A DNA stretch of 49,599 nt from a bacterium (GCA_021813145.1 JAKALS010000005.1:74022-123620), one strand, 5' to 3'; positions 2,897 through 49,599 are shown, numbered from the stretch's first letter. Notes: a model not told the origin generated them from the letters alone. A program made the numbers and translations.

Positions 2897-2916
2897 TATA
2901 ATTATTTAAACTGCCT

Positions 2917-35320: not shown

Positions 35321-35390
35321 TACTAATTCATACCCTTTTTCCTGATGTCTATCTCCAATATAATCTAAAATTCACTCTTGAGTCGTCAAG

Positions 35391-35415
35391 TTTACAGTTC
35401 ACAGTATACTGTAAA
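35391..35415. promoter_or_regulatory. nested palindromes (operator-like): TTTACAGT..ACTGTAAA around the perfect 12-mer ACAGTATACTGT
   Basis: ACAGTATACTGT at 35401-35412 is self-complementary. The outer arms are TTTACAGT (35391-35398) and ACTGTAAA (35408-35415). Related GTATAC-centred words recur at 35454-35464 and at 41903-41929. Confidence 0.5.
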
Positions 35416-35445
35416 CAATGTCAATACCCTTATTCGCAAAGCAAA
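35398..35445 (+). repeat. 48-bp direct repeat, copy A (40/48 identical to 41910-41957)
   Basis: TTCACAGTATACTGTAAACAATGTCAATACCCTTATTCGCAAAGCAAA aligned by hand to copy B. It contains a reverse-strand TTGACA box and hairpin family member H1. Confidence 0.8.
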
Positions 35446-35457
35446 GAATTTAAAGTG
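35433..35457. repeat. hairpin-repeat family member H1 (degenerate right arm)
   Basis: TTCGCAAAGCAAAGAATTTAAAGTG. The left arm and loop match the family, but the right arm has decayed. Confidence 0.5.
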
Positions 35458-35497
35458 TATACTACAACAATAACTTGACAGGCTTTGTATCTCTTAC

Positions 35498-35535
35498 TTG
35501 ACACCCTGTGATAACTGTTGTAAAATAATTACAAC
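35498..35535 (+). promoter_or_regulatory. promoter and operator of the XRE-ImmA-exonuclease cassette
   Basis: -35 TTGACA at 35498-35503, a 17-nt spacer, and -10 TAAAAT at 35521-35526. The inverted repeat GTTGTAA-AATAA-TTACAAC (35517-35535) covers the -10 and ends at the ATG (35536). A second TTGACA lies at 35475-35480. Confidence 0.6.
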
Positions 35536-35907
35536 ATGAAATTTGGAGATTATTTCAGACAATTACGGATAGCTAGGGAAATGACTCTTCGAGGATATTG
35601 TGAGCGATTTGGGCAAGACCCATCAAATATTAGTAGACTGGAGAATGGCAAACTAAATCCTCCTAAAGACGTTGGGAAATTGAAAGGTTATGCTATTTCT
35701 CTTGGATTAAAAGAAAATACAAAGGAATGGATTAATTTTTTTGATTTGGCATATCAAGCCAACAAAGAACTTCCCAAAGAAATTAAAGAGGAAGTCCCTG
35801 AAGTAATTGCCTTATTACCGGCATTTTTAAGAACGGGGAATAATAAGAAAATAAATAAAGAAAAGGTTAAAAAACTTATTAAATTTCTGGAAAAAGGCGG
35901 AGAGTAA
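35536..35907 (+). CDS. XRE-family HTH transcriptional regulator
   Basis: FGDYFRQLRIAREMTLRGYCERFGQDPSNISRLENGKLNPP is the HTH_3 pattern. 123 aa. Confidence 0.85.
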   Translation: MKFGDYFRQLRIAREMTLRGYCERFGQDPSNISRLENGKLNPPKDVGKLKGYAISLGLKENTKEWINFFDLAYQANKELPKEIKEEVPEVIALLPAFLRTGNNKKINKEKVKKLIKFLEKGGE

Positions 35908-35908
35908 T

Positions 35909-36502
35909 ATGACTGTTTCTCCGGCTAAACCTCTTACTTATAAACAGATAATTAAAATCGCGGAAGGTTTCTTAAAAGAACACTACTCTTCATTAAGGAT
36001 TCCAATTCCGATTGAGGAAATAATTGAATTGGAATTAGGAATTAAGATAACCGCTTACAATGGTCTTAAGAAAAATTTCGATATCGACGGATTTTTATCC
36101 GGTGATTGTAGTGAGATAGTAATCGACAACGGTGTTTTTATAAAATTTAAAGAAAGAGCTAGATTTACTTTGGCACATGAATTAGGTCATAGTGTTCTTC
36201 ATAGAGAACTATATGAGCACTTGAATTTTAAAACTCCTGAAGATGTAGTAAATTTTCAGGATGCAATTTCTGAAGAAAATTATGGGTGGTATGAGTATCA
36301 GGCAAATGTTTTTGCTGCCGGACTCCTTGTTCCTTCAGAAATTCTGAAAATAGAATACGATCTTGCTGTTAAGGAAATAAAGAAAATAAATAAAGAAGAG
36401 GAATTTATTGTTCCCTATTTAGAATCTTTGTTAAATAAATTTGAGGTTTCAAGTTATGTTTTGATTCAGAGATTAAGAAAAGAACACTTATTAGGCTCTT
36501 AG
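35909..36502 (+). CDS. ImmA/IrrE-family (COG2856, M78) zinc metallopeptidase
   Basis: The HEXXH motif sits in RFTLAHELGHSVLH, with a downstream EYQANVFAAGLLVP. The gene starts 1 nt after the XRE stop, and a GGAG lies 8 nt upstream. Confidence 0.85.
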   Translation: MTVSPAKPLTYKQIIKIAEGFLKEHYSSLRIPIPIEEIIELELGIKITAYNGLKKNFDIDGFLSGDCSEIVIDNGVFIKFKERARFTLAHELGHSVLHRELYEHLNFKTPEDVVNFQDAISEENYGWYEYQANVFAAGLLVPSEILKIEYDLAVKEIKKINKEEEFIVPYLESLLNKFEVSSYVLIQRLRKEHLLGS

Positions 36503-36526
36503 TTTAAACATTTGGATTAAATTATA

Positions 36527-36976
36527 ATGGACGTAAGTGATGATTACAATTTGATATTCGTCGACTGTGAGGGATACGGCCCAGCTCCTACGCTTAATGA
36601 TGATCGAGCCTTTGAATTTGGAGCAGTTGATTTTAAATCAAAACAGTCATTTCACGGTTATGGCGCAACAAAAAAAACATTTATTAAGTTTAATAAATGG
36701 TTAAATCAATTTAAAGGCAGACTTATATTCGTAAGCGATAATCCAGCCTATGATTGGCAATTTATAAACTATTATTTCCATAAATTTCTTAGTGTAAATC
36801 CGTTTGGCCATTCAGCCAGGAGAATATCTGATTTCTACGCTGGTATGAACGGGGATTTCTTTGATTCGACCGGATGGAAGAAATGGAGAAAAACTCCACA
36901 TGATCACAATCCAGTTCACGATGCCCTTGGTAACGTGGAAGCCTTCACAAAAATTTTAGAGATGGGGAAAAAATAA
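36527..36976 (+). CDS. small DEDDh (DnaQ-like) 3'-5' exonuclease
   Basis: ExoI is IFVDCEGYG, ExoII is VSDNPAYDWQFINYYF, and ExoIII is HNPVHDALGN (H-x4-D). 149 aa, similar in layout to Rv2179c-type exoribonucleases. Confidence 0.7.
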   Translation: MDVSDDYNLIFVDCEGYGPAPTLNDDRAFEFGAVDFKSKQSFHGYGATKKTFIKFNKWLNQFKGRLIFVSDNPAYDWQFINYYFHKFLSVNPFGHSARRISDFYAGMNGDFFDSTGWKKWRKTPHDHNPVHDALGNVEAFTKILEMGKK

Positions 36977-37041
36977 AAACCTATGAAGCCAAAATCCAGA
37001 ATGATACTTTTCAAAGATCGCCGAAGCGTTCTTCAAAAAGC

Positions 37042-37065
37042 TTCGTAAAGCAAAAATTTTACGAC
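37042..37065. repeat. hairpin-repeat family member H2
   Basis: TTCGTAAAGCAAAAATTTTACGAC, with stem TCGTAAA/TTTACGA. It is followed by ATGGA, as is H3. Confidence 0.75.
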
Positions 37066-37085
37066 ATGGATTTTCCGAGCGATAC

Positions 37086-38267
37086 TTATAAATCGGTTGC
37101 TGAAATGGAGTTTATATTGTTATTGAAATCTAATGAAACGATATAGGCTTCTTTTAGGTTCAAGGGCTGTGATTTCCTTTTTAAATATTCCATATCACCA
37201 AGTGAAAAAGTAAGCTTAGCTTCCAAAGCAGTTTTTTCGTCAACGATAAAATCTATTTCGCTTTTTCCTTCCTTGTTATAGTAATGCAGGGTAAAATAAG
37301 GTCTTAGGTTTTGAAAAACGCTTTGCTCAAAAAGCTGCCCTAAAGATATTTTCCCAAGTATATTAGCAATGCCGCTGTCGCAAAGGAATAATTTTTTTCC
37401 TCCAGATGATTGACGGTCAATGCTTTTTGAAAACTTCGATAATAACGAAATAAAATATGTTTGTTCAAGGAAATATAGATAGTTATATACCGTTTCTCGC
37501 GATAGAGAAAGACTAGAAGCAAGCTTTGCAATTTCTATGCGTTGTCCTATACGTGGAACTAAAAGTAAAATTAAGTCTCTGAGTTTTGCCATATCTTTAA
37601 AATCGGCCAGATTTTTGGCATCTTTTTCAAAATACGAAGTAAAAATCTCCTCCAAAAGAATTTTTTTTCTTTCTCTGTTTTCCTCCAACACTATTGCGGG
37701 AAATCCGCCAAACTCAATATATTCGTTATAATACTTTTTGTATTGCTCGAAGTTTATTTTATTTTTGCCTTTTATCTTTTCCTCAAAAGTCGAAAAATAT
37801 TTTTTTTCTACCCCTTTAAAACGTAGGAATTCAGAAAAAGTTAGTGGATATAATTCGAGCACAACTTTCCTTCCGCTAAGTGATTCAGGGAAAAGGTTCT
37901 TAAGATAATAGCTGCTTGACCCGGTGAGCACGAATTTAATATCAAAATGGTCATATAGATACTTAATGGCGGTGCTGATAGTCGGTAAGTTCTGTATCTC
38001 ATCAATAAAAAGATATGCCTTTTCTTTATTAGTTATGCCATATTGAGCTAAATTATTCCAAATATTATCATAGTTTTCTTCCTCAAAAACATGTCTGTGC
38101 AAGGGATTTTCCAGGTCAAAGATCGCTTTATTTTTGGATACTATTGAATCAAAAAGGCGAACTAGAAGTGTGGTTTTACCGACTCTTCTCATACCCGTGA
38201 TTACGGTTACCTCCTTTTTATCGAGTTCCTGCTCAAGTTTTGGTAAAATATTTCTTGGGATAAACAT
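37086..38267 (-). CDS. AAA+ ATPase with C-terminal DUF4143 (COG1373-type)
   Basis: Walker A VITGMRRVGKTTLL, Walker B YLFIDEIQNLP, and a C-terminal SEIDFIVDEK..LEAK PD-(D/E)xK-like segment typical of DUF4143. Confidence 0.8.
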   Translation of the reverse strand: MFIPRNILPKLEQELDKKEVTVITGMRRVGKTTLLVRLFDSIVSKNKAIFDLENPLHRHVFEEENYDNIWNNLAQYGITNKEKAYLFIDEIQNLPTISTAIKYLYDHFDIKFVLTGSSSYYLKNLFPESLSGRKVVLELYPLTFSEFLRFKGVEKKYFSTFEEKIKGKNKINFEQYKKYYNEYIEFGGFPAIVLEENRERKKILLEEIFTSYFEKDAKNLADFKDMAKLRDLILLLVPRIGQRIEIAKLASSLSLSRETVYNYLYFLEQTYFISLLSKFSKSIDRQSSGGKKLFLCDSGIANILGKISLGQLFEQSVFQNLRPYFTLHYYNKEGKSEIDFIVDEKTALEAKLTFSLGDMEYLKRKSQPLNLKEAYIVSLDFNNNINSISATDL

Positions 38268-38275
38268 CTACTTAC

Positions 38276-38304
38276 ATCTTACATATACGGGGGGTGTTTG
38301 TCAA
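38276..38304 (-). promoter_or_regulatory. promoter of the AAA-DUF4143 gene (TTGACA-17-TAAGAT)
   Basis: On the reverse strand, TTGACA is at 38299-38304 and TAAGAT at 38276-38281. The -10 ends 8 nt before the ATG (38265-38267). Confidence 0.5.
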
Positions 38305-38371
38305 GTGCCATTTGACACTCTCGGTATTCTAGCCTCAAATATTATGCAGATAAAAGTTTCAATCTCGTTTA

Positions 38372-38395
38372 GCCGCAAACCAAGGTTTTTGCGAC
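38372..38395. repeat. hairpin-repeat family member H3
   Basis: GCCGCAAACCAAGGTTTTTGCGAC, with stem CGCAAA/TTTGCG. The loop CAAGGTTTTT is shared with H5, and the 3' flank ATGGA is shared with H2. Confidence 0.75.
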
Positions 38396-38419
38396 ATGGA
38401 ACACTTATGCAGCCAGATT

Positions 38420-39472
38420 TTATATTTTCTTGTATCTTATTGCAGAACCTTCGCCTATTCTTTCTATCTTTTTCATCTCAATAAGCTTTGTCAATACCTG
38501 ATTGACTGTAGGTCTGGCAACATGGGCTTTTTGTGCTATTTCATTGGGACTAGCTTCATTTACGGTTTGCAAATATTCCCATACAGATAATTGTTTTGGG
38601 GAAAGAAGTGCCTCAATGTTTTCGGCAGTCAAAAGTCCGATTGCCATCTGCGATTGCATCGTAATAATAGAAAGGAAGAAAGTTAACCAAGCAGTAATAT
38701 CAGGGTTTTTTGCATTGAATGTTTTCTGGCTTTGTCTAAGGGCAAGGTAGTACTCCGGTTTATTATCTTCGATCAGTTTTTCGTGTGAAACATAGGGCAT
38801 ATACAAATAGCCTTGTTGTAACAGAAGCATGTTTGTTAAAATGCGCGACAATCTACCGTTTCCGTCTTGGAACGGGTGGATATTTAGAAATTCGACAATA
38901 AAGTTGCCGATGACGAAAAGCGGATGGTATTTCCTTTCTTCAAGAGTTTGTATCGTCCAATCTGTAAGCTCCTTCATTTTTATCGGGGTTAGGTAGGCTG
39001 GAGTAGTGTCAAAAAGGATACCTACCGAATTTCCAGCCTCATCGATCATTTCTACCTTATTTTCAGTATGTTTATAGTCGCCTCTGTGTAACTCGTCTTT
39101 TTCAACGTATTTGAGAAGTTCTTTATGGAAATGTTTTATAAGGCTCTCGTTAAAATGTAAATCTTCCCAGGTGTCAAAAACGTTTTGAAGTAACTCATAG
39201 TAACCTTTTACTTCCTGTTTATCTCTGTTGCTGAATTTTTGAACCGATATGCCACGAAGCATCTTTTCGATGTCTTCATCAGACATTTTAGCTCCCTCGA
39301 TACGTGTTGATGCCCCCGAAGACGTAACGAGTACGGAACGCTTAAGCCTCCCAAGTGTTTGCGGGCTCAAATTAGATCCGGCAATCCATCTGCCTTTTAA
39401 CTCTTCAATTTGGGCAATTTCTGCCAAAATTTCATGGGTAATGTTTTTTAGTCTCAGATCAAAATCTGTCAT
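38420..39472 (-). CDS. Fic-family protein (class-II-like) with C-terminal winged HTH
   Basis: Fic motif HPFQDGNGRLSRILTN. The N-terminal inhibitory-helix motif is STRIEG, i.e. (S/T)xxxE(G/N). The C-terminal wHTH is EASPNEIAQKAHVARPTVNQVLTKLIEMKKIERIG. Confidence 0.85.
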   Translation of the reverse strand: MTDFDLRLKNITHEILAEIAQIEELKGRWIAGSNLSPQTLGRLKRSVLVTSSGASTRIEGAKMSDEDIEKMLRGISVQKFSNRDKQEVKGYYELLQNVFDTWEDLHFNESLIKHFHKELLKYVEKDELHRGDYKHTENKVEMIDEAGNSVGILFDTTPAYLTPIKMKELTDWTIQTLEERKYHPLFVIGNFIVEFLNIHPFQDGNGRLSRILTNMLLLQQGYLYMPYVSHEKLIEDNKPEYYLALRQSQKTFNAKNPDITAWLTFFLSIITMQSQMAIGLLTAENIEALLSPKQLSVWEYLQTVNEASPNEIAQKAHVARPTVNQVLTKLIEMKKIERIGEGSAIRYKKI

Positions 39473-39480
39473 ACGCTTGA

Positions 39481-39510
39481 TATATATAAGATTATATAAG
39501 GTTATATAAG
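39481..39510. repeat. three tandem 10-bp units (TATATATAAG ATTATATAAG GTTATATAAG)
   Basis: Read directly from the sequence. The units overlap the -10 of the reverse-strand Fic promoter. Confidence 0.8.
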
Positions 39511-39519
39511 ATAAGTCAA
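39491..39519 (-). promoter_or_regulatory. promoter of the first Fic gene (TTGACT-17-TATAAT)
   Basis: On the reverse strand, TTGACT is at 39514-39519 and TATAAT at 39491-39496, separated by a 17-nt spacer. The ATG lies 18 nt downstream of the -10. Confidence 0.55.
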
Positions 39520-39530
39520 GAGTATTGCCT

Positions 39531-39554
39531 GTCGAAAATCAAAAGTTGTGCGAC
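39531..39554. repeat. hairpin-repeat family member H4
   Basis: GTCGAAAATCAAAAGTTGTGCGAC. The right half TTGTGCGAC is identical to H6. It lies 11 nt beyond the Fic -35. Confidence 0.7.
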
Positions 39555-39725
39555 TCTGACAGATAATAGTTTCACTAAACCGTACATTTTTACTGCTTTC
39601 TGAACGTAAAAGATTATTTACGTAGAGAGATACGACTTCTATCGCAGAAGAAATTAAAACTCGAATAACAATAGGCTTCTATTCCATATAACTTAATTAA
39701 AGCAGGATCTTACCCGTCTGATATA

Positions 39726-39798
39726 TGACAACTTTCTTTACAACAATAAATTGATACTTGACAACGTAGTTTACAACTATATCTAGAAAGTTGACAAC
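39726..39798 (+). promoter_or_regulatory. iteron-like array: TGACAAC-N5-TTACAAC units with 33-bp period
   Basis: TGACAAC occurs at 39726, 39759 and 39792, and TTTACAAC at 39737 and 39770. The last TGACAAC doubles as the -35 of the downstream promoter. Confidence 0.6.
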
Positions 39799-39819
39799 TA
39801 TAATTTTTTCAGATATAAT
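39791..39819 (+). promoter_or_regulatory. consensus sigma70 promoter (TTGACA-17-TATAAT), leaderless geometry
   Basis: TTGACA at 39791-39796, a 17-nt spacer, and TATAAT at 39814-39819. The ATG at 39826 is only 6 nt downstream. Confidence 0.7.
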
Positions 39820-39825
39820 ACTTGT

Positions 39826-40854
39826 ATGGAAATTAATGATTTGATTCTCGATATAGCTAATAAGAATAAGACTTTCAAAACCGCCGATGTTGTGAAGCGG
39901 CTGGGTGGAAGATATACGAGACAATATATAAGCTCCAAAATCAGCAAAATGGTTAAAGATAAATTGCTTTTAAAAGGCGGAAGTACGTCTGGTGCTTTTT
40001 ATGCGTTGCCTTCAAATTCCGATCAAGTATTTGAGAACATAAGGCTAAGATTTTTGAGAGACTCGGTAGAGGAACATAGGGTATTCAATAATATTAGAGA
40101 TAGATACAAGTTAATTCAAGAGCTCCCCGAAAACGTTTCTAGCTTACTTTTTTATGGATTTACGGAGATGTTGAATAATGCAATCGAGCATTCTGAATCG
40201 AAGTATGTTGAAATTGAGGTGTTCATAGATAATAAAAATTTAACATTTGTTATTAACGATTTTGGAGTTGGTGTATTTCGTAACGTTATGGAAAAAAGGG
40301 GCTTAAAATCGGAGCTAGAAGCCATGCAAGATTTACTGAAGGGAAAAACAACTACGCAGCCTCATTCCCACACCGGAGAAGGTATATTTTTTACTTCTAA
40401 AGTTGCTGATTTATTTGAGTTAGATAGCTATGGTTTCAAAATGAGAGTGGATAATATAGTGGAAGACATTTTTTTTCAGGAAACCAAAGAAATAAAGAAA
40501 GGGACCAGGGTAACATTTTCAATTGCTATCAACTCGAAAAAACACCTTAATGATGTGTTTGGAAAATATGTAACTGAACCAGGAGAAGTGGGTTTTGATA
40601 AAACAGAAATATTAGTAAGACTATTTATCCAAGGGAATGTGTATATTTCCCGCTCTCAAGCGAGGAGAATATTAACCGGTCTTGATAAGTATAAAACAGT
40701 TGTTTTGGATTTTGATAAAGTTACGACCGTAGGACAAGCATTTGCGGATGAGATATTTAGAGTGTTCCAACAAAGGTATCCTGAGATAAAAATTGAGCCT
40801 ATTAATACTTCAGATCCAGTGAAGTTTATGATAGATAGGGTTGAGAAGCCTTGA
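39826..40854 (+). CDS. wHTH - GHKL (RsbW/SpoIIAB-like) ATPase - STAS-like (DUF4325) fusion protein
   Basis: N-terminal wHTH (FKTADVVKRLGGRYTRQYISSKISKMVKDKLLLK). N box EMLNNAIEHS, G1 box INDFGVGV, G2 box HTGEGIFFTSK. The C-terminal VVLDFDKVTTVGQAFADEIFRVF is the DUF4325/STAS-like pattern. Confidence 0.7.
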   Translation: MEINDLILDIANKNKTFKTADVVKRLGGRYTRQYISSKISKMVKDKLLLKGGSTSGAFYALPSNSDQVFENIRLRFLRDSVEEHRVFNNIRDRYKLIQELPENVSSLLFYGFTEMLNNAIEHSESKYVEIEVFIDNKNLTFVINDFGVGVFRNVMEKRGLKSELEAMQDLLKGKTTTQPHSHTGEGIFFTSKVADLFELDSYGFKMRVDNIVEDIFFQETKEIKKGTRVTFSIAINSKKHLNDVFGKYVTEPGEVGFDKTEILVRLFIQGNVYISRSQARRILTGLDKYKTVVLDFDKVTTVGQAFADEIFRVFQQRYPEIKIEPINTSDPVKFMIDRVEKP

Positions 40855-40896
40855 TTTCTTTATCTACCGCACTGGGAACTATTTTTTCCTTTTTTT

Positions 40897-40920
40897 GTCG
40901 TAATACAAGGTTTTTACGAC
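40897..40920. repeat. hairpin-repeat family member H5
   Basis: GTCGTAATACAAGGTTTTTACGAC, with stem GTCGTAA/TTACGAC. It lies between two convergent genes. Confidence 0.8.
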
Positions 40921-40925
40921 GTAAA

Positions 40926-41900
40926 CTAAATTTCGCTGATAATATCAAATCCCTTAAAGCTTCCGGTTATCGCCAATCCAATTATTTCTCCGTTTACCAA
41001 GTTTTTATCCTTAATTTTTTTTGCTGTTTCGTTCATTGTTGCGCCGGATCCTACAGCATCATCTATAAGAAGAACATTTGTATACTTTTTTTTATCATCT
41101 ATTATGATTGTTCTTTTTGCATTCTCAACCCTGTCCTCAAGTTTTGAAAGAGTCTTCTGGGGTACAATTATTTCCGTTTTTATTTTAGTTACGGACACAG
41201 CCCTTGTTGGGAGGTCGAGCTGCTTTTCCAACTCCTTCATGAACTGGATTTCTCTCTTTACGGTTGGAGGAACAAAAAGTATGCCGTCAATCTTATTTTC
41301 TTTTATGACCCCTAGTATTTCAGGACGGATTTGATTTATAAGTCGACTAATTAGTCCCACGTTCTGGCTTTGTTTGGCATATAAAAGCATTTGCCCAAGT
41401 TTAGTTTTTCCGAATCTTTCTATGCTATAAAAGTCAAGATAATAAAGCTTATCAAGATAGACGTCCTTAAATGTATTTTTCATTTTTGGCATTCCGTTTA
41501 TGAGGCCGTTTTTCTTAAATTTATCAAACTTGTTGATTGTGGAAATATATTCTCTTGCAGTTTTTGTTGGATCCTGATTGGTTTTTTCGCACCAGGCAAG
41601 AAATCCTTCCCATCCCTGTCGTTCTTCACCAGTGGGGGAGATATACAAGTACCTATCATTTATTAAGTTAACGTTTGCCTTATCAAATAATACCGGTTTG
41701 GATATTTTTTTAGATGCTAGTGAGTAATATACCTTAGGCGGTTTGCCGACTTTCTCCAGTTTGCTTTCGTCAATTAGTTTATTAAGCTGTCTATGTACAG
41801 AGGCTCGGGTTATACCGAGTACTCCGGTAAGCTCATGTACACTCACCTGATTATGTAACTTGATATACTCCAAAATTTTACCTCTAGTATTAGTAATCAT
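40926..41900 (-). CDS. wHTH - ComF-like phosphoribosyltransferase (PRTase) domain protein
   Basis: N-terminal wHTH (ILEYIKLHNQVSVHELTGVLGITRASVHRQLNKLIDESKLEKVG). The C-terminal PRPP-binding loop is VLLIDDAVGSGATMNETAKKI, preceded by ILFVPPTVKREIQF, as in the ComFC/amidophosphoribosyltransferase family. Confidence 0.7.
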   Translation of the reverse strand: MITNTRGKILEYIKLHNQVSVHELTGVLGITRASVHRQLNKLIDESKLEKVGKPPKVYYSLASKKISKPVLFDKANVNLINDRYLYISPTGEERQGWEGFLAWCEKTNQDPTKTAREYISTINKFDKFKKNGLINGMPKMKNTFKDVYLDKLYYLDFYSIERFGKTKLGQMLLYAKQSQNVGLISRLINQIRPEILGVIKENKIDGILFVPPTVKREIQFMKELEKQLDLPTRAVSVTKIKTEIIVPQKTLSKLEDRVENAKRTIIIDDKKKYTNVLLIDDAVGSGATMNETAKKIKDKNLVNGEIIGLAITGSFKGFDIISEI

Positions 41901-41907
41901 GGTATAC

Positions 41908-41936
41908 AGTATACAGTATAGTGTATACTATGTCAA
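41908..41936 (-). promoter_or_regulatory. promoter of the wHTH-PRTase gene (TTGACA-17-TATACT), leaderless geometry
   Basis: On the reverse strand, TTGACA is at 41931-41936 and TATACT at 41908-41913. The ATG (41898-41900) is 7 nt downstream. The promoter is embedded in GTATAC-rich repeats (ACAGTATAC x2 and AGTGTATACT). Confidence 0.6.
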
Positions 41937-41957
41937 TATCCCTATTCGCAAACCAAA
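41910..41957 (+). repeat. 48-bp direct repeat, copy B
   Basis: TATACAGTATAGTGTATACTATGTCAATATCCCTATTCGCAAACCAAA is 40/48 identical to 35398-35445, in the same orientation. Confidence 0.8.
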
Positions 41958-41968
41958 TCTTGTGCGAC
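41945..41968. repeat. hairpin-repeat family member H6
   Basis: TTCGCAAACCAAATCTTGTGCGAC. It lies 8 nt beyond the PRTase -35 box. Confidence 0.7.
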
Positions 41969-42058
41969 GCGGGAAGCTAATTTAATATATAACAAACACC
42001 ATGCAAAAGCCTTGAAAACTTAAACTAAAAGTTGTAATCTTGCCTCAGCAATATTGAT

Positions 42059-42679
42059 ATGGAGAATTTATTATTAATTTTTAACTTCTTAAATACCTAT
42101 ACAGGAGTTATTCAAGCGATTTTTATTATTCTTTTAGTTTTAATTACAGCATATTATGCCTTGCAGACTCGTTCTACCGTTAAGGCAATGGAAATTCAGA
42201 GAAAAGATAACATCTTGCCAATTGTAATATCAGAAGAATTAATTATTTCTAAAAAAACTTCTAAGGAGAACTGCATTGATGGGAAATTTAATAATATAGG
42301 CAGTGGTCCTGCATTTTCTATAAGAGTTAATTTTTTATCTATGGACACAGGTTATAAAATAGCGGAATCTAATGAAATCATAGATTATTTAGAGAAAGGA
42401 AGACGTAAAGCACATATACATATTTCAGCTAAGGATTGGAAAAAATTAAACTTCGAGACAATAAATGGACAACAGCTAGCAGGTATTTATGTTAGAGTAC
42501 ATTATCAGGATTATTACGGAAGGATTACTCATTCTCAAAGATGTTTTATTGTTGATAAAAAATCTAATAGCCTAGAGCCGATCGAAGGAAGTTTTGAATT
42601 TATGCATGTGGGCAAATTTGAAGGAACTTTTTATTCAATTAAAACATTTTTACGCTCTCCTTTCCAAAATTTCCCTTAG
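42059..42679 (+). CDS. membrane-anchored hypothetical protein
   Basis: 206 aa. An N-terminal TM helix (GVIQAIFIILLVLITAYYAL) is followed by a beta-rich domain (NNIGSGPAFSIRVNF). No family recognised. Confidence 0.5.
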   Translation: MENLLLIFNFLNTYTGVIQAIFIILLVLITAYYALQTRSTVKAMEIQRKDNILPIVISEELIISKKTSKENCIDGKFNNIGSGPAFSIRVNFLSMDTGYKIAESNEIIDYLEKGRRKAHIHISAKDWKKLNFETINGQQLAGIYVRVHYQDYYGRITHSQRCFIVDKKSNSLEPIEGSFEFMHVGKFEGTFYSIKTFLRSPFQNFP

Positions 42680-42752
42680 AATGGTGAGTTAGAAAGTCGA
42701 ACCATTATAATAGTGAGTGGCTTATCGAACTACAAAGTGCTATTAATAAGAT

Positions 42753-43103
42753 ATGGAAGAAAATGCTCCCGCACAACAACCAATACTCCCAAATCAACAG
42801 TCGCCAACGCCGGTAGTTATAGAAAATCAACCAGTAAAAACGGTAGCTAAGAAGCCTTTTAAAATAGGTTTAGGTGCAGTTTTAGGTATGATAGTTGGAA
42901 TTTTAGCCTTCTTAGCAGGAGTTGAGCAAATACCTGGAGGAGTATATTTTCTGAATGGAATTTTATTTCTCTTAGCAGGTATTACTGTCTTTCCGTTAGT
43001 GTCGTATGGATTGCAAACAACTTATAATATTGAATTATCTGGTCCACTTAAGTGGTTTCTATTCTTTATATTAATTCTTTTTGCTGCTTTTTATAAACAT
43101 TAA
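42753..43103 (+). CDS. small membrane protein with Q/P-rich N-terminus
   Basis: 116 aa with three hydrophobic helices. An extended -10 TGCTATTAA (42738-42746) ends 6 nt before the ATG. Confidence 0.5.
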   Translation: MEENAPAQQPILPNQQSPTPVVIENQPVKTVAKKPFKIGLGAVLGMIVGILAFLAGVEQIPGGVYFLNGILFLLAGITVFPLVSYGLQTTYNIELSGPLKWFLFFILILFAAFYKH

Positions 43104-43142
43104 TTGTAGAGTTTTCATCAAAGTGCTATTATCCAGTTAAAT

Positions 43143-44273
43143 ATGCAAAAGCTTCGAAAAATTTTCTTCGTTGTTGCAAGTGGTGGTCACGAAACTGAAA
43201 GACATTACATTGATACTATTGAAAGAAAAAGATCAATTGATGAAGCAGAAAAATTTTTAAGACCTCAAGAAATTGAGATTCTTAAAAACACATATCACAG
43301 TGGACCATTCGCAGTATGGGGCGCTGTACCCGGTTCGGGTAATTTAAGGACATGGGAAACGATGGAAGCTGGTGATTATGTATTAATTTATAAATCTGGA
43401 AGAATAATTTTTGCCGCAGAAGTTGCATTAAAAACCAGAAATCCTCAGATGGCAAAATATCTTTGGGGAGAAGACAACAATGGCAATACTTGGGAATATA
43501 TGTATTTTCTTATAAACACACAAGAAGCGGATGTAAGTATGTCTGTGTTAAATCCCTATCTCGGATATTCTGAAAATTATTTCCCCCGAGGATTTATGGC
43601 AATCGAACAAGAGAAGGCAAACGAGTTACTTAATCATTATGGGGATGTACTTTCCGCAATCACAACAATGCAACAGGGGAAAAGGCTGAAAAAAATTGCA
43701 GAAAAGGCGAAACAAGAAGCAGAAGAATTTAACGAGAGGATTGAAAGAGCACCAACAGAACATGACGAAATGCAGTGGAGATTAATAAGAATTGGTAAAA
43801 AAGCACATATAGATGTTTGGGTTCCGCAAAATGATCAAGGGAAAAGTTATCAAGGTCATAAGTTTAAAGATGATGTTTTGCACGATTTTCAAGAAACATT
43901 AGATGTCCCAAATTATATAAAAAATATTGACGTTGTTTGGAAGTTTGGACTTTCAATAAAATCTGCTTTTGAAATTGAACACTCAACCTCGGTATATTCA
44001 GGGATATTAAGGCTTTCTGATTTAAAAGCATTAACTCCAAATTCGATCTATCCAATGTTTATTGTTGCGGATAGAGACAGACGAAGTAAGGTTTTTGCAG
44101 AACTTAAAAGGCCAACTTTTAATAATCCATATCTTAATTTGGCAGATGCAATAGGATATTTGTCTTATGATAAAGTACGAGAAATTGACGAGAGTACAAA
44201 AGGCCAGAATGCAAATATATCAATTGATTTTTTGGTCCAACAAAGCGAAAAGATAAGCAAAAATGAAAATTAG
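43143..44273 (+). CDS. putative modification-dependent nuclease: PUA/EVE-like N-domain + PD-(D/E)xK-like C-domain
   Basis: The N-domain FAVWGAVPGSGNLRTWETMEAGDYVLIYKSGRIIFAAEV is an EVE/PUA-like pattern. The C-domain has EHDEMQWRLIRIGKKAHIDVWVP..IDVVWKFG..SAFEIEHSTSVYSGILRLSDL, a restriction-endonuclease-like core. Assigned from pattern memory only. Confidence 0.45.
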   Translation: MQKLRKIFFVVASGGHETERHYIDTIERKRSIDEAEKFLRPQEIEILKNTYHSGPFAVWGAVPGSGNLRTWETMEAGDYVLIYKSGRIIFAAEVALKTRNPQMAKYLWGEDNNGNTWEYMYFLINTQEADVSMSVLNPYLGYSENYFPRGFMAIEQEKANELLNHYGDVLSAITTMQQGKRLKKIAEKAKQEAEEFNERIERAPTEHDEMQWRLIRIGKKAHIDVWVPQNDQGKSYQGHKFKDDVLHDFQETLDVPNYIKNIDVVWKFGLSIKSAFEIEHSTSVYSGILRLSDLKALTPNSIYPMFIVADRDRRSKVFAELKRPTFNNPYLNLADAIGYLSYDKVREIDESTKGQNANISIDFLVQQSEKISKNEN

Positions 44274-44961
44274 AGACGCCATCCTCTCTTACCGCGAAAT
44301 GTGTGATTTGGAAAATGTCCAAACACTCCAGCGGGGAATGAACTTTAGATTAAATCCTCTTTATTCAGTAATTTTGATGTCTCAAAGAACGAACGCCCCC
44401 TATAAAGATAAAATTTATGATGATGGAATAACAATTGAATATGAAGGACATGACGTTTCTAAAAAGGATTATTTTCATAATCCAAAAACTGAAGATCAAG
44501 TAGAACTTTTGCCATCTGGAAATCTTACACAAAATGGAAGGTTTATAAATGCCGTTAAAGAATACAAAAAAGGAATGCAAAATCCCGAGCTTATAAAAGT
44601 TTACGAAAAAATTATGAACGGTGTTTGGTCGTTAAAGGGAATTTTTGAACTTGTTGACTATAAAGTAGTAAATGATGGACGTAGAAACGTTTTTCGTTTT
44701 ATTCTAAAGCTTACAAATTTAGGAAACGTTGAAAATAAAAAGCAAACAATAGAAATTTCGCAAACAAGAATTATCCCAACAGAAGTGAAGAAGGAGGTTT
44801 GGAAAAGGGATATGGGGAAATGTGTTTTATGTGGCTCAAAAGAAAATTTGCATTTTGATCATGATTTGCCTTATTCAAGAGGCGGCACAAGTTTATCTGC
44901 GAAAAATGTCAGATTACTGTGCATGAAACATAATCTTCAAAAATCCGACAAGATTGAATAA
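44263..44961 (+). CDS. HNH endonuclease with N-terminal reader-like domain (McrA-type architecture)
   Basis: C-terminal HNH: CVLCGSKENLHFDHDLPYSRGG..NVRLLCMKHNLQKSDK. The N-terminal ~170 aa (RGMNFRLNPLYSVILMSQRTNAPYKDKIYDDGITIEYEGHD) recalls the YS[LV][VI]L..Y.DD..G...Y.G segment of SRA/PUA-like readers. It overlaps the upstream gene by 11 nt. Confidence 0.7.
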   Translation: MKIRDAILSYREMCDLENVQTLQRGMNFRLNPLYSVILMSQRTNAPYKDKIYDDGITIEYEGHDVSKKDYFHNPKTEDQVELLPSGNLTQNGRFINAVKEYKKGMQNPELIKVYEKIMNGVWSLKGIFELVDYKVVNDGRRNVFRFILKLTNLGNVENKKQTIEISQTRIIPTEVKKEVWKRDMGKCVLCGSKENLHFDHDLPYSRGGTSLSAKNVRLLCMKHNLQKSDKIE

Positions 44962-45298
44962 TTTGACTTCTTCTCGATTTAACTCAGAACTATAGTTAGC
45001 CACAAAATTAGCAATCGTTTTATTTTACTGATTGTTTTTTCTAGAATTATGTTGTATAAATAATTGTCAATAAGGCGAAGGAAAAAGTGCCTGATGACAA
45101 CCTCAAATTGCCACCAATCTTAACCTTCGAAAATTAAATGAAAGAAGAGAAAGACAAAAATCCTTTTTCAGGTATATTTATTTTTTCCAAAGAAATTAAA
45201 AACGATGGAAAAATTCATGCCGAGGGAGAAAACATTATACGCATATAGAAACAGATAAATATTCAGGTAAGGGTGAGATAAGCGTAAAGTCAACTTCT

Positions 45299-45541
45299 TT
45301 GTTTGAAAAAAGAATAAAGCGAGGAAGTGAGAGCTGGAATTTTATTTACATGGTGTTAGGAGTATTGCTTGCAATTGAAATTTTTGTGCTCAGCATTTTA
45401 TCTTGGAATTTTTTGAGTAAAATTGTTGTATTTTTAATAATATTTACAATCTCATTATGGCTTTGTTTATTTAATGCTTGGTTTCAAAATAAATTAATTG
45501 GATTAAAAATAAAAATTGAGGAAGCATGGAAGAAAATATAA
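45299..45541 (+). CDS. small two-TM membrane protein
   Basis: 80 aa from the TTG at 45299, or 63 aa from the ATG at 45350. Helices are VLGVLLAIEIFVLSILSW and IVVFLIIFTISLWLCLF. Confidence 0.4.
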   Translation: MFEKRIKRGSESWNFIYMVLGVLLAIEIFVLSILSWNFLSKIVVFLIIFTISLWLCLFNAWFQNKLIGLKIKIEEAWKKI

Positions 45542-45553
45542 GGGAGGTGAAAC

Positions 45554-45856
45554 ATGATATTTTTATGGACTTGGGGAGGAATCTTCTTTGGTTATAGAAA
45601 AGACAACTATCTATGGACTCATGACGGAAAAAATGTGGGAAAATTTTATGATAACGAAGTTTATGATATGAATGGAGAATACTTGGGAGAAATAAGAAAT
45701 GAAAATAGACTAATAATAAACTTGAATAAAGGAAATTATAGAAAGCCTCCGTTTACTCCTTATGCAGATGTTATAGGGATTGTACCTTATGCAAATTATG
45801 TTGGATATGTAATGTATGTTGGGCATGAAGATTTTCATTTACCAGAAGATTTATAA
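45554..45856 (+). CDS. small beta-rich protein (4-fold beta-flower-like repeats)
   Basis: 100 aa with repeated aromatic-Gly hairpin units (WTHDGKNVGKFYDNEVYDMNGEYLGEI). A strong SD GGAGG at 45543-45547 lies 6 nt before the ATG. Confidence 0.35.
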   Translation: MIFLWTWGGIFFGYRKDNYLWTHDGKNVGKFYDNEVYDMNGEYLGEIRNENRLIINLNKGNYRKPPFTPYADVIGIVPYANYVGYVMYVGHEDFHLPEDL

Positions 45857-45875
45857 GTGGAGGGGGTGAAAACAT

Positions 45876-46172
45876 ATGGCTAAACAAATAATATGCGCCA
45901 ATAAACCAAGCGGAAATCTACATAATCCTCATGAAACTGTTACTGACTATGGTTGGCATGATGATATTACAAATACCAATGGAATATGGGATAGGCAGAC
46001 TATGGTTGATTGGGTCAATGCTGGAAATAGGGCATACGTGGGAAACAATGGAAAAGTGAGCGAATGCGCTGTTAGGGGGATTCCTCCAAGGCAATTTTTG
46101 CAGACACATGCAGATGGTTATTGGAACGATAACATTGTTAACTTACCGAATTGCATAGTGTCCAATATTTAG
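45876..46172 (+). CDS. DUF3892-like protein
   Basis: 98 aa. The pattern ..HETVTDYGW....W.RQTMVDWVNAGNRAYVG.NGKVSECAV....FLQTHADGYWNDNIVNLPNC matches my memory of DUF3892 (..T.aDg...DNLl.LP.C). An SD GGAGG lies at 45859-45863. Confidence 0.5.
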   Translation: MAKQIICANKPSGNLHNPHETVTDYGWHDDITNTNGIWDRQTMVDWVNAGNRAYVGNNGKVSECAVRGIPPRQFLQTHADGYWNDNIVNLPNCIVSNI

Positions 46173-46173
46173 A

Positions 46174-46902
46174 ATGAAGTGTTGCTTATGTTTGCAAGAG
46201 AAAAAACTTGTTGATGCCCATATTATTCCAAAATGGGCCTTCATGTATTTATATCCCGAATCGAAAGTTCAGCCTTTAATATTAATAGGTACAGAAGGGA
46301 ATAAGAAGAGCAGGGTTGGAGTTTATGACCCAAATATCCTTTGCAAGGAATGCGACGGATTTATAGGTATTTTTAATAATTATGGGAAAAAAGTATTTCT
46401 AGAAAAACAATTGGAAGATTCGCAATTTCAAGGCCTGGCTTATGTAATTAAAGATATTAAACCCGAGGAATTAAAAATATTTTTACTTTCAGTAATTTGG
46501 AGAGCTTCAATTTCAAAAAGAGAAGAAGTAAAGGCTATCAGTCTTGGCCCCTATGAAGATAAAATACACAATCTTCTCTTTAAAAAGAAAGAAAATAAAG
46601 ACATAACTCCAGACTTAAAAGAATTCTCAATTTTAATTTCTCGATTTGGGGAGGGTGGCTATCCTGATTTAACAAATAAAAATATTCAACTTCCTTTATT
46701 TACAAGAGTCGATGGTGTTAATTTTAATATTGTATATTTTCCCCGAGGTTTTAAAATTTATATAAAAACAGATAAAAGGCTAATCAGTGAACCATTTAAT
46801 AAATTAGAATTAAAAGACGGTGATCTTATTGTTTTAAAGTTAAAAAACTTTCAAGAGAGTAAAGAATTTTACCAAATGAGAAAATTTCTTAAGGATAAAT
46901 AG
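46174..46902 (+). CDS. Cys/His-rich protein, HNH_5-like putative nuclease
   Basis: 242 aa. CCLCLQEKKLVDAHIIPKW plus LCKECDGFIG resembles the CxxC..EHiiP..vCxxCN layout of the HNH_5 family. It starts 1 nt after the upstream stop. Confidence 0.3.
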   Translation: MKCCLCLQEKKLVDAHIIPKWAFMYLYPESKVQPLILIGTEGNKKSRVGVYDPNILCKECDGFIGIFNNYGKKVFLEKQLEDSQFQGLAYVIKDIKPEELKIFLLSVIWRASISKREEVKAISLGPYEDKIHNLLFKKKENKDITPDLKEFSILISRFGEGGYPDLTNKNIQLPLFTRVDGVNFNIVYFPRGFKIYIKTDKRLISEPFNKLELKDGDLIVLKLKNFQESKEFYQMRKFLKDK

Positions 46903-46937
46903 ATTGCCCTTAGGGTAGAAATAATCTCAAGCTCCGC

Positions 46938-46962
46938 GTCGCAAAATAGAGGATTTACGTCG
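46938..46962. repeat. hairpin-repeat family member H7 (degenerate)
   Basis: GTCGCAAAATAGAGGATTTACGTCG. The left arm and spacing are conserved, but the right arm is imperfect. Confidence 0.5.
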
Positions 46963-47022
46963 ATATATCTATGGATGTGCATAGACTATGCTATATAATA
47001 ATACTTTATACTACATTTATGC

Positions 47023-47051
47023 TTGACAAGTAGTGTTATATAGTATAAAAT
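47023..47051 (+). promoter_or_regulatory. promoter of the second Fic gene (TTGACA-17-TAAAAT), leaderless geometry
   Basis: TTGACA at 47023-47028 and TAAAAT at 47046-47051. The ATG at 47059 is 7 nt downstream. Confidence 0.55.
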
Positions 47052-47058
47052 AGTTTAA

Positions 47059-47994
47059 ATGGATAATAAATTACAATTATTAAAGACTAAAAAACAATGG
47101 TTAGAAAACTATAAACCATTTCCAAAAGAGATTGAAATAAATCTCCAGGAATGGTTTCGTATTGAATTAACGTATACATCTAATGCTATTGAAGGTAATA
47201 CTTTAACTCGTCAGGAAACTGCTTTAGTAGTCGATGAAGGATTAACAGTTGAGGGTAAAAGCTTAACTGAGCATCAGGAGGCAATAAATCATTCTTTGGC
47301 CTTAGATTATATTTATGCCCTGGCAAATCAAAAACAGAAGTTAAGTTTAAATGAAATATTAGAAATTCATAATATTATTCTTAATAAAATTGATGATTCT
47401 AATAAAGGTAGATTGCGAACGGTTTCAGTAAGACTTAAAGGATCTGAAACAATTTTGCCAAATCCACTAAAAGTTCCCGAATTAATGAATGATTTTGTTA
47501 TTTGGCTTCAGGATGAAGACCAGAATGATCCAATTAAATTTGCGATAGATGCACATTTTAAATTCGTCACTATTCATCCGTTTGTTGATGGGAATGGTAG
47601 GGTTGGACGATTATTAATGAATTTGTTATTAATAAGAGCAGGATATCCACCAGCAATTATTCGAAAAGAAGATAGAAATGAATACGTAAAATCTTTGGAA
47701 AAAGGTCAAACCAAAGAAGAAATGGATGATTATTATACTTTAATGATTAATGCTGTAGATAGATCGTTAGATATATATCTCGAAGCGTTAAATCCGAAGG
47801 AAGAAAATGTAAATGAAATTCAAGAAAAAAGGTTTCTTACTACTGATGAAGTTGCAAAATTACTACAGGTAGATCCGGAGAGTGTTAGGCGTTATGTAAG
47901 ACGCGGTGATTTAAAAGCAGTAAAATTAGGTGGTAAATTTATTAGAATTGAAAAAGTAGATTTAAATAAGTTCATCGAAAAACTCAAAAAATAA
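47059..47994 (+). CDS. Fic-family protein (class-II-like) with C-terminal excisionase/MerR-type HTH
   Basis: Fic motif HPFVDGNGRVGRLLMN and inhibitory motif SNAIEG. The C-terminal LTTDEVAKLLQVDPESVRRYVRRGDLKAVKLGGKFIRI is the HTH_17 pattern. Confidence 0.85.
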   Translation: MDNKLQLLKTKKQWLENYKPFPKEIEINLQEWFRIELTYTSNAIEGNTLTRQETALVVDEGLTVEGKSLTEHQEAINHSLALDYIYALANQKQKLSLNEILEIHNIILNKIDDSNKGRLRTVSVRLKGSETILPNPLKVPELMNDFVIWLQDEDQNDPIKFAIDAHFKFVTIHPFVDGNGRVGRLLMNLLLIRAGYPPAIIRKEDRNEYVKSLEKGQTKEEMDDYYTLMINAVDRSLDIYLEALNPKEENVNEIQEKRFLTTDEVAKLLQVDPESVRRYVRRGDLKAVKLGGKFIRIEKVDLNKFIEKLKK

Positions 47995-48009
47995 TTTAAT
48001 TTAGATCAT

Positions 48010-48033
48010 GTCGTAAAAACTAGGCTTTACGAC
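48010..48033. repeat. hairpin-repeat family member H8 (perfect 8-bp stem)
   Basis: GTCGTAAA-AACTAGGC-TTTACGAC, starting 16 nt after the Fic stop codon. Confidence 0.8.
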
Positions 48034-49436: not shown

Positions 49437-49484
49437 GAATATTACAACTTATAGTAATTTTTGTCAAATATCTGTGCTGGCACC

Positions 49485-49599
49485 CTAGATAGAGAACGGT
49501 CGTTCTCCTTTCTGTCTTTGGTACTCTTGTACAACCTGAAATGGAGTTTTGTAACCCAAAGACTGATGATATCTTTTAGTATTGTACTTGGTATTAAAC
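49485..49599 (-). mobile_element. 3' end of a DDE (rve-type, IS3/IS481-like) transposase gene; the element continues beyond the window
   Basis: The reverse-strand frame ..FNTKYNTKRYHQSLGYKTPFQVVQEYQRQKGERPFSI* contains the conserved integrase-core C-terminal signature YN..R.H.SLGY.TP. Confidence 0.65.

Follow-up and report, generated by a model that had tools for sequence, protein, structure and literature searches.

Intergenic palindromes as probable site-specific recombination cores between the gene cassettes of a Levybacteria-like island

What divides an island of small defence, toxin and regulatory genes into units at copies of one short palindrome? The question is raised by a stretch of 49,599 nucleotides (GCA_021813145.1 JAKALS010000005.1:74022-123620, called the window here), in which eight 24-nt palindromic sites, H1 to H8, separate the genes of an island into seven cassettes, A to G. 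The window is placed, on evidence given below, in the Candidate Phyla Radiation (CPR). The answer favoured in this work, with a probability of about 85%, is that the sites are simple cores, of at most 26-28 bp, for site-specific recombination. It follows from the placement of the sites, from a site that is duplicated around an inserted cassette, from the re-use of cassettes as modules, and from homology that breaks inside the site.

The sites were scored by their matches, out of 16, to GTCGYAAA-N8-TTTRCGAC, and a copy with a score of at least 14 was called strong. Seven strong copies (14-16 of 16) begin at 37042, 38372, 39531, 40897, 41945, 46938 and 48010, and no other position in the window scores 14 or more. 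The number expected from first-order Markov shuffles is 0.007 for the island and 0.02 for the window, and the observed count was never reached in dinucleotide shuffles searched with a looser pattern. All eight sequences listed in a first-pass annotation of this DNA were found in their places. H1 (35433..35456, + strand) is the left boundary of the array and is decayed, TTCGCAAA gcaaagaa TTTAAAGT; it retains the left arm and the spacer CAAA, and its right arm is gone. On the same strand follow H2 (37042..37065, TTCGTAAA gcaaaaat TTTACGAC), H3 (38372..38395, GCCGCAAA ccaaggtt TTTGCGAC), H4 (39531..39554, GTCGAAAA tcaaaagt TGTGCGAC), H5 (40897..40920, GTCGTAAT acaaggtt TTTACGAC) and H6 (41945..41968, TTCGCAAA ccaaatct TGTGCGAC). 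H3 and H5 have the 6-nt centre CAAGGT in common. The last two sites are given without a strand: H7 (46938..46961, GTCGCAAA atagagga TTTACGTC) and H8 (48010..48033, GTCGTAAA aactaggc TTTACGAC), the latter being the right boundary of the array. The shared strings that had been reported were also correct, namely CAAGGTTTTT in H3 and H5, TTGTGCGAC in H4 and H6, and CGACATGGA after H2 and H3. A single orientation had been claimed for the whole family. This holds for H1-H6, whose spacers all read nCAAR and which therefore lie in one orientation, and finds no support in H7 and H8, whose spacers lack CAAR. With its flanks (TGTCGTAAA...TTTACGACA) H8 forms a perfect 9-bp palindrome; its reverse complement fits the spacer consensus better, and its orientation is ambiguous.

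All seven strong sites are intergenic, intergenic DNA making up 14% of the island, and they fill seven of the ten island gaps that are at least 24 nt long. Each stands at a unit boundary, so the view that the sites delimit discrete cassettes is upheld. No copy with a score of 14 or more was found in 45 kb of core DNA (35 kb within the window and 10 kb more to its left), in line with the earlier statement that the core intergenic regions of the window carry none. H2 and H5 lie between convergent gene ends, H4 and H6 between divergent promoters, and H3 and H7 between tandem units. Only a boundary function fits all three types of placement.

The most direct evidence for recombination at the sites comes from L417 and L418, a pair of contigs of which one is from an NCBI and the other from an ENA assembly. 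They are 99.6-100% identical, and both carry a 94% homologue of the winged-helix phosphoribosyltransferase (PRTase) of cassette E. L418 has an extra 755 bp, a RelB-ParE cassette with its own promoter, and this insert lies between two identical direct copies of the 26-mer cGTCGTAAAaaccttggTTTGCGTCa, where L417 has a single copy. The sequence beyond the 26-mer differs at once. The RelB-ParE cassette was thus gained or lost exactly at the duplicated site. This is the comparison of sister genomes that the first-pass annotation had proposed, and its outcome supports the idea of recombination or insertion points.

The cassettes are also re-used in other surroundings. In L320 (Levybacteria contig CAVRKE010000002) a 66%-identical PRTase gene lies between two sites arranged like H5 and H6, one with a CAAGG-type centre 3' of the gene and one of the CAAA type beside the promoter. 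Its neighbours, an AbiEii-like nucleotidyltransferase, a Doc-Phd pair and an IS110 element, are unlike those in the window. The PRTase cassette with both of its sites is therefore found among different neighbours, as expected from the suggestion that cassettes are shuffled. The CAAGG-type spacer stands 3' of the PRTase gene in the window, L320, L411 and L417; the 3' site is likewise kept beside the 88% PRTase homologue of L411-L413. Cassette-type sites adjoin defence genes in L140, L320 and L345, which come from Levybacteria and another Patescibacteria genome.

Homology that breaks inside the site is seen at H1. H1 and H6 have a common 15-nt left flank (atgtcaataccctta) and left arm, and they diverge within the site. 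When 35388-35440 is compared with 41898-41952, the left flank of H1 proves to be a copy of the PRTase promoter and operator (ACAGTATACTGT...ATGTCAATAyCCyTA-TTCGCAAA), and no gene follows it at H1. In L411-L413 the PRTase and XRE genes are adjacent, and in L411 they are direct neighbours with only a half-site between them. The H1 flank thus represents the -35 region of the PRTase promoter, and H1 is a relic junction, left by a PRTase cassette that formerly adjoined the XRE cassette. A second relic lies in L423, upstream of a GHKL-STAS homologue, at the position that is homologous to H4. There, at 9909-9926, a collapsed site, GTCGTAAA-CT-TGTGCGAC, equals the site of L345 minus six central bases (CAAAGA), with the same flanks. 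Cleavage at both edges of a 6-bp overlap may have left it as a dead end.

We hypothesize that the sites are cores of about 26-28 bp in which two inverted arms, (nn)GTCGYAAA(n), enclose a centre that is asymmetric and mostly has CAAR on one side. The duplicated unit of L418 measures 26 bp, and the conserved block of the Parcubacteria-type sites described below 27-28 bp. A cassette would consist of one gene or small operon, its own promoter and one site. As a circle, it would insert into any resident site or leave it, and serial insertion would build a row of cassettes separated by directly repeated sites. In its fuller form the proposal is that the palindromes are recombined as duplex DNA, that the cassettes are circular, and that the recombinase acts in trans and is most likely the Xer-type tyrosine recombinase of the host; we regard the chances of this fuller form as even. 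The enzyme, whose identity, class and cleavage positions we infer, would act on dif-like sites of 11-6-11 layout, and the one-sided CAAR would mark the side of the first strand exchange. Such a system would resemble integrative mobile elements exploiting Xer (IMEX) and the dif modules of Acinetobacter, and, for defence and toxin genes, it would take the place of an integron.

A search of the island, of 45 kb of core and of 20-kb regions around cassette homologues found no recombinase gene, from which the action in trans is deduced. Among all island open reading frames (ORFs) and 20 core ORFs, Pfam gave no Phage_integrase or other recombinase domain. A housekeeping enzyme acting in trans accounts for the lack of a linked gene and, equally, for a site that is conserved from one CPR class to another. 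A Xer enzyme is favoured by the geometry, because the spacing of 22 nt from TCG to CGA equals that of a palindromic dif with two XerC-type arms and a 6-bp spacer, and because the arms of the window sites resemble the XerC arm ATTTCGTATAA (PMC13141974, Table 1). It is also favoured by the isolation of the cores. No accessory half-site was found within 150 nt of any window site, and half-sites number 0.46/kb within that distance vs 1.5/kb elsewhere. The one-sided CAAR fits a one-sided first strand exchange, and the relic of L423 has lost exactly the six central bases, both of which speak for Xer.

By analogy, the array is closest to dif modules and IMEX arrays in architecture and behaviour, to a transposon resolution site in sequence, and to the integron in function. 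The dif modules of Acinetobacter plasmids (bounded by pdif sites) and IMEX such as CTXphi, TLC and the gonococcal island likewise have short inverted-arm cores with a 6-bp centre that bound discrete modules. Their modules often bear toxin-antitoxin (TA) genes and lack a recombinase of their own, the host enzyme acting on them, and the cassettes of the array also lack one. The XerC arm has a near match in array arms such as TTCGTA-AA. Recombination that adds, removes or reorders modules involves sites whose centres are identical (PMC13141974), and L418 behaves alike. IMEX integration leaves directly repeated sites, some of them degenerate, and the array shows the same. However, successive pdif sites are inverted relative to one another (C/D, D/C) and each has two unlike arms, whereas H1-H6 are direct repeats with near-identical arms. 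The common orientation of H1-H6 therefore fits tandem integration of the IMEX type and not the rule of pdif modules. The array is moreover chromosomal and in a CPR bacterium, while the dif-module examples are on Acinetobacter plasmids, and its dependence on Xer is putative.

Related sites occur in other genomes. The full set of 185,579 species genomes, searched with KTCGYAAANCAARNNNTKTRCGAC, contains 97 matching loci. The strict pattern GTCGYAAA-N8-TTTRCGAC gave, among the matches listed from the genome collection, mostly single hits due to chance. One group of sites belongs to the CPR and is a near-invariant 27-28 bp sequence, (A/T)(C/T)GTCG(C/T)AAAACAAACATTGTGCGACGT, with the core GTCG(C/T)AAAACAAACATTGTGCGAC and two bases on each side. 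It is non-coding and occurs once per genome in Nomurabacteria, Kaiserbacteria, Saccharibacteria and other Parcubacteria (L307 at 2222, L314 at 2525, L317 at 6741, L319 at 4972, L327 at 767, L375 at 2804 and L384 at 561, and also L396, L405 and L362). A NUDIX gene lies on one side in five of these loci, four of which have a conserved 216-aa gene on the opposite side. The GC skew changes sign at the exact-spacer site in four of six loci and merely becomes more negative in the other two. This palindrome is a candidate chromosomal dif of these CPR lineages.

The same site occurs on L408 (IMGVR_UViG_3300012942_000418), a putative viral contig of 4.6 kb with a rolling-circle Rep of the G2P-like type. 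Its site, at 4543-4566, is identical over 27 nt to the chromosomal site of Saccharibacteria. Filamentous phages integrate at dif by means of the host Xer enzymes, and the layout of L408, a Rep gene with a dif-like site, is like theirs. The single site of CPR genomes and the Rep element with the same site thus look like a dif and a dif-exploiting element, which again favours Xer. When relatives of L408 were sought among viral contigs, only L408 itself was returned. A match in a phi29-like phage (L409) is probably due to chance. Taken together, the observations permit a wider and more tentative proposal, which we hold as a possibility somewhat short of an even chance. Levybacteria and their relatives would capture small circular defence, TA and regulatory cassettes, each with a leaderless-type promoter of its own, at dif-like sites of 26-28 bp by means of the housekeeping Xer, without a dedicated integrase but in the manner of integrons, and so build chromosomal arrays, and the single site of other CPR genomes would be the dif itself and an attachment site for rolling-circle elements.

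Several observations weigh against these readings. Slippage, or homologous recombination between the two identical 26-bp copies, could have deleted the cassette in L417. In the roughly 60 kb of the window's genome that were read, no recombinase gene was found, of the Xer type or any other. Some sites have spacers of 7 or 9 nt, which a strictly spaced core would tolerate poorly, and adjacent sites differ in their centres, so that a tyrosine recombinase could exchange strands between them only to a limited extent. In the island the GC skew tracks the direction of the genes, and there is no replication-type switch at the array. The skew at the CPR sites is weak evidence for a terminus, since the loci share their gene order. 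The immediate neighbours of the site are convergent in only three of 12 loci, and clear convergence of genes is confined to L314, L405 and L140. Matches to the strict motif come from no more than about a dozen CPR species representatives, so that at this stringency it is not a universal CPR dif. Lastly, the characterised site that is closest in sequence is the site of a serine resolvase and not a Xer site.

This last point leads to the alternative that survives best, although we consider it unlikely. A small serine recombinase of the resolvase/invertase family, encoded elsewhere, would act on sites related to the res subsite I of the Tn3000 group and exchange cassettes at the central dinucleotide. 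The scan of species genomes retrieved, with a motif derived from the window, a large proteobacterial family, TGTCGYAAAAC-N4-GTTTTRCGACA, of the res type. In 28 of the 97 loci a serine resolvase gene starts 109-135 nt from the site, and in two more it lies farther off. Between the site and this gene there are further CGGAAAAC half-sites, and a TA pair lies on the other side. These sequences are the res subsites of Tn5501, Tn5393.1 and Tn4662a (PMC7157771, Table S2), and the arms and spacing of the window sites match subsite I of Tn5501.12, Tn4662a and Tn5393.1. With TGTCG(T/C/G)AAAAC-N4-GTTTT(G/T/A)CGACA, the transposon subsite has nearly the same core and spacing as the array site. The first-pass annotation had stated that the sites match no canonical definition, which is too strong in view of this likeness to res subsite I (PMC7157771) and of the dif-type geometry (PMC13141974). 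In the Tn3000 group TA genes are reported always to adjoin res site I, and TA modules to be exchanged between elements there (PMC7157771), which is a further argument for a serine enzyme. The central dinucleotide is AA or AG in nearly all our sites, which also counts for a serine enzyme. A GC-containing outer hexamer, an A-tract, the centre and a size of 26 bp are typical of a serine recombinase core and count on the same side.

However, neither tblastn with Tn3000-group TnpR (E<10) nor Pfam found a serine recombinase in the window or in 22 CPR loci. A Tn3000-group res consists of three subsites beside the resolvase gene, and wild-type resolvases need the accessory ones, whereas the CPR sites are isolated, without half-sites or a nearby resolvase. 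Each of these transposons has one resolution site, while the CPR arrays hold many cassettes. Resolvases and invertases favour intramolecular reactions over the integration of circles. The likeness was partly forced by the search pattern, with two of four free positions matching, and the loss of six central nucleotides in L423 fits a 6-bp overlap better than a 2-bp stagger.

The same family of sites gave some observations outside the CPR. In Alphaproteobacteria (L379, L403, L341, L387, L305 and L395) the form GTCG(C/T)AAA-(a/t)caaa(t/a)at-TGTGCGAC adjoins ParD-ParE, MazF, RelB and HicB modules, and no resolvase was found in these 8-kb loci. This suggests that the pairing of a TA module with the core site is widespread beyond Tn3 transposons. 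On a Pseudomonas aeruginosa plasmid (L407, NZ_OL780449) a TniA-TniB-TniQ module of the Tn5053/Tn402-like type (2154-4083) lies 60-90 nt from a Tn4662-type res subsite I and adjoins a RelE/ParE-HTH pair. Transposons of this type habitually target res sites, and L407 fits that habit. Three similar palindromes, (A/G)TCGNAAA-N8-(A/T)TT(A/G)CGAC, occur in the methanogen Methanocella sp. (L086, MVRA01000001, at 4421, 4940 and 5828). They lie in the short spaces that separate small co-directional ORFs, and one immediately precedes an ATG; an unrelated repeat family or an archaeal analogue is possible. The centre AAACCAAGGTTTTT of H3 and L417 is identical to the centre of hixL, but with the symmetry axis one base off, and we take this to be a coincidence.

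A second alternative, which we consider very improbable, is that the sites act as folded single-strand hairpins read by a structure-specific enzyme. This would be an integron-like integrase, or an HUH nuclease of the Rep, RAYT, IS200/IS605 or IS91 type that nicks the CAAR loop. The stem-loop form with its conserved asymmetric loop nCAAR would suit such an enzyme, which would also tolerate the loops of 7-9 nt in some copies. An identical site is found on a small element with an HUH rolling-circle Rep, and the Y/R position of the stem is mostly complementary. Nevertheless, the folding of the sites as single-stranded DNA is weak (-0.2 to -7.2 kcal/mol). The hairpins of seven of the eight sites are no better than those of shuffled sequences at z<-2.2, and H8 alone is stable (z = -5.1). 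Sixteen sites, drawn from the window and seven further CPR contexts, were aligned and have a mean column identity of 82%. Their arm positions are paired in 86.7% of cases, a value equalled by 190 of 500 column shuffles, and the covariation score is ordinary (85 of 500 shuffles), so the pairing does not exceed what the column composition gives. The arm asymmetry of A7 opposite G18, which yields the arm TGTGCGAC, is kept in seven of the 16 sites. Two inverted half-sites that are conserved as sequence and not as structure point to a dimeric protein on duplex DNA, not to a folded strand, and the hairpin-targeted system of the first-pass annotation is not borne out.

The particular forms of this alternative fare no better. 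Like integron arrays, including the sedentary chromosomal ones that are rich in defence and TA genes, the island consists of small mobile units that end in a site, with sites in one orientation and a cargo of defence and toxin genes, and the insertion of a unit duplicates the site at both ends in both. However, the integron has IntI, attI and Pc, none of which was found in the array, whose head is the XRE-ImmA cassette. An attC site measures 57-141 bp, with R''-L''/L'-R' boxes and extrahelical bases, and is conserved in structure, whereas the array sites measure 24-26 bp, have no extrahelical bases, and keep the sequence of both arms across phylum-level CPR lineages. Integron cassettes are mostly promoterless, lie in one orientation and are expressed from Pc, while those of the array have their own promoters on either strand. 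The integron reading is for these reasons set aside. Repetitive extragenic palindromes (REP) with their RAYT enzymes, and the hairpins of IS200/IS605, are like the array sites short intergenic palindromes with a conserved asymmetric feature. REPs are, however, abundant and dispersed genome-wide, whereas the motif was not found in the 45 kb of core and has about one strict match in each of the other CPR genomes, so that the REP/RAYT reading is likewise dropped. No IntI, TnpA, RAYT, Rep or other HUH gene was detected by Pfam in the window, and the insertion of a cassette duplicates the whole site in L418, which IS200/IS605 insertion does not produce.

A third alternative, just as improbable, is that the sites are regulatory or insulating elements (bidirectional terminators, lineage-wide protein sites or nucleoid boundaries) and that the cassette differences arose by slippage or homologous recombination. 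H1, H4, H6 and the site L320a lie 9-12 nt upstream of a -35 box, and two sites lie between convergent genes. Many homologues of the cassette genes have no site, several PRTase and GHKL-STAS genes standing alone in core contexts, and the L417/L418 indel formally fits a deletion between identical repeats. An intrinsic terminator was rejected, since only one of the eight sites (H8) passes a lax rule, the stems are weak, and H4 and H6 lie between divergent promoters; an operator for the cassettes was rejected too, H2 and H5 lying between convergent ends and the cassettes owning different operator palindromes. This alternative fails because neither a terminator nor an operator covers the convergent, divergent and tandem placements, because no copy marks the many transcription-unit boundaries in 45 kb of core, and because a cassette takes its flanking sites along from genome to genome, with homology ending inside the site.

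Site-specific recombination at a short core therefore remains our reading, and it bears on a poorly explained part of CPR biology. CPR bacteria (Patescibacteria) have tiny genomes, and how they acquire and exchange genes is little understood. A survey of Patescibacteria reported many genomic islands and gave no mechanism for them (PMC12455944), and we found no earlier description of such sites in the literature on dif/Xer in CPR, on integrons or on recombinase islands in Patescibacteria. If the reading is true, it supplies a defined mechanism of gene capture for the CPR, in which a compact site marks exchangeable defence and toxin cassettes. The principle of dif modules and IMEX would then extend from Acinetobacter plasmids and Vibrio phages to the chromosomes of an uncultivated radiation. 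Metagenomes could also be searched with the site as a simple probe for mobile cassettes and the genes they bring, for example the winged-helix-PRTase family. The likeness to the res subsite I of the Tn3000 group poses the question whether addiction modules at crossover sites share a common logic or ancestry.

The host was assigned from the genes around the island. The core genes of the window include FtsK, RNase J, a short alanyl-tRNA synthetase, a sortase, NusA, IF-2 and ClpB-like ATPases, and an FtsK with a gamma domain is encoded in this genome, which is a further pointer to Xer. The nearest relatives of the flanking glycosyltransferase belong to an unclassified metagenome-assembled genome (MAG; L001, 77% identity) and to a Candidatus Levyibacteriota MAG (60%). 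The gene set and these relatives place the window in an ultra-small, Levybacteria-like bacterium of the CPR. In L001, the best match in the genome collection, the gene order is rearranged and the sites are lacking, and in the metagenome collection the glycosyltransferase query gave no relative above 56%. The window is one end of a metagenome contig of 123.6 kb that is unchanged in several samples; exact look-ups returned only this contig, identical in four to five samples and with invariant cassettes. The GC content of the island is 0.30-0.375, compared with about 0.42 in the core. No tRNA or tmRNA was found by ARAGORN, either in the window or close to any of the sites, and Rfam gave no family match in the window or at the conserved CPR site. 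The last 140 nt of the window (49460-49599, - strand) encode the C-terminus of a DDE (rve-type) transposase, ...YNTKRYHQSLGYKTPFQVVQEYQ..., and the public contig stops 14 nt past the window. A repeated insertion sequence has therefore probably broken the assembly, 1.5 kb from H8.

The gene content proposed for the units was confirmed by Pfam. Cassette A (35457..37041, + strand) encodes an XRE repressor (35536-35907), an ImmA/IrrE M78 peptidase (35909-36502) and a DEDDh-like exonuclease (36527-36976), and its promoter at 35498-35526 matches the consensus at 11 of 12 positions. Cassette B (37066..38371, - strand) encodes an AAA_14-DUF4143 ATPase (37086-38267) with a promoter at 38304-38276. Cassette C (38396..39530, - strand) encodes a Fic protein with a C-terminal winged helix (38420-39472); its promoter (39519-39491, 11/12) is 12 nt from H4. 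Cassette D (39555..40896, + strand) holds the gene of a GHKL ATPase with a DUF4325 (STAS-like) domain (39826-40854), with a promoter at 39791-39819 (12/12). Cassette E (40921..41944, - strand) is that of the winged-helix PRTase (40926-41900), and its promoter (41936-41908, 11/12) is 9 nt from H6. Cassette F (41969..46937, + strand) is a multi-gene block of about 5 kb by Pfam and the gene table. It encodes a 206-aa membrane protein, a 116-aa protein, a 376-aa NmeDI_C-like protein, an HNH nuclease, small proteins, a Bflower-like protein, a DUF3892 protein and a 242-aa protein. Cassette G (46962..48009, + strand) encodes a Fic protein with an HTH_17 domain (47059-47994), with a promoter at 47023-47051 (11/12). 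Three of the seven units are thus on the minus strand.

The best sigma-70 matches of the island (10-12 of 12) all lie at unit starts, 6-10 nt before an ATG, so that each cassette with its own promoter is a self-contained transcription unit. The promoters are near the consensus TTGACA-N17-TAnAAT and are followed by no Shine-Dalgarno sequence (35498-35535, 38276-38304, 39491-39519, 39791-39825, 41908-41936 and 47023-47058), which suggests that the cassette mRNAs are leaderless or nearly so. Between the -35 box and the start codon each cassette has a separate palindromic operator. That of the PRTase gene is ACAGTATACTGT, and that of the GHKL-STAS gene is a repeated TGACAAC(G/T)TAGTTTACAACT, which is kept at three further genomic loci (L423, L427 and L428). 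In other genomes GHKL-STAS homologues also stand as single genes, at three separate places in the core. In cassette F a possible relic half-site, TTCGAAAA (45126-45133), lies after ACCTCAAATTG in a 337-bp gap. If it is real, which we hold with low confidence, the block may combine two former cassettes, 42059-44961 (NmeDI_C-like protein and HNH nuclease) and 45299-46902.

The winged-helix-PRTase family is large, highly conserved and widespread among CPR genomes, with 3521 relatives at E<=1e-20, and the best 120 of the 3521 are 62-94% identical to the window protein. Every phylum named among the matches with a named organism belongs to the CPR/Patescibacteria group. One Levybacteria contig of 679 kb carries two paralogues. 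The protein has a sub-threshold Pfam match to PRTase-CE, with 21 bits against a curated cut-off of 27.

A second motif, TAGCCTCAA, was observed in several genomes 6-9 nt to the left of a site, at cassette starts, and at island boundaries without a palindrome. Its copies lie at 38330-38338 in the window and at L140 263, L345 2124, L423 9894, L320 2045 (- strand), L418 1052, L416 5985 and L414 7154/7273, and the sequence ACCTCAAATTG at 45103-45113 in the window is a weaker copy. The motif could belong to the site as an accessory element, or mark where a cassette ends.

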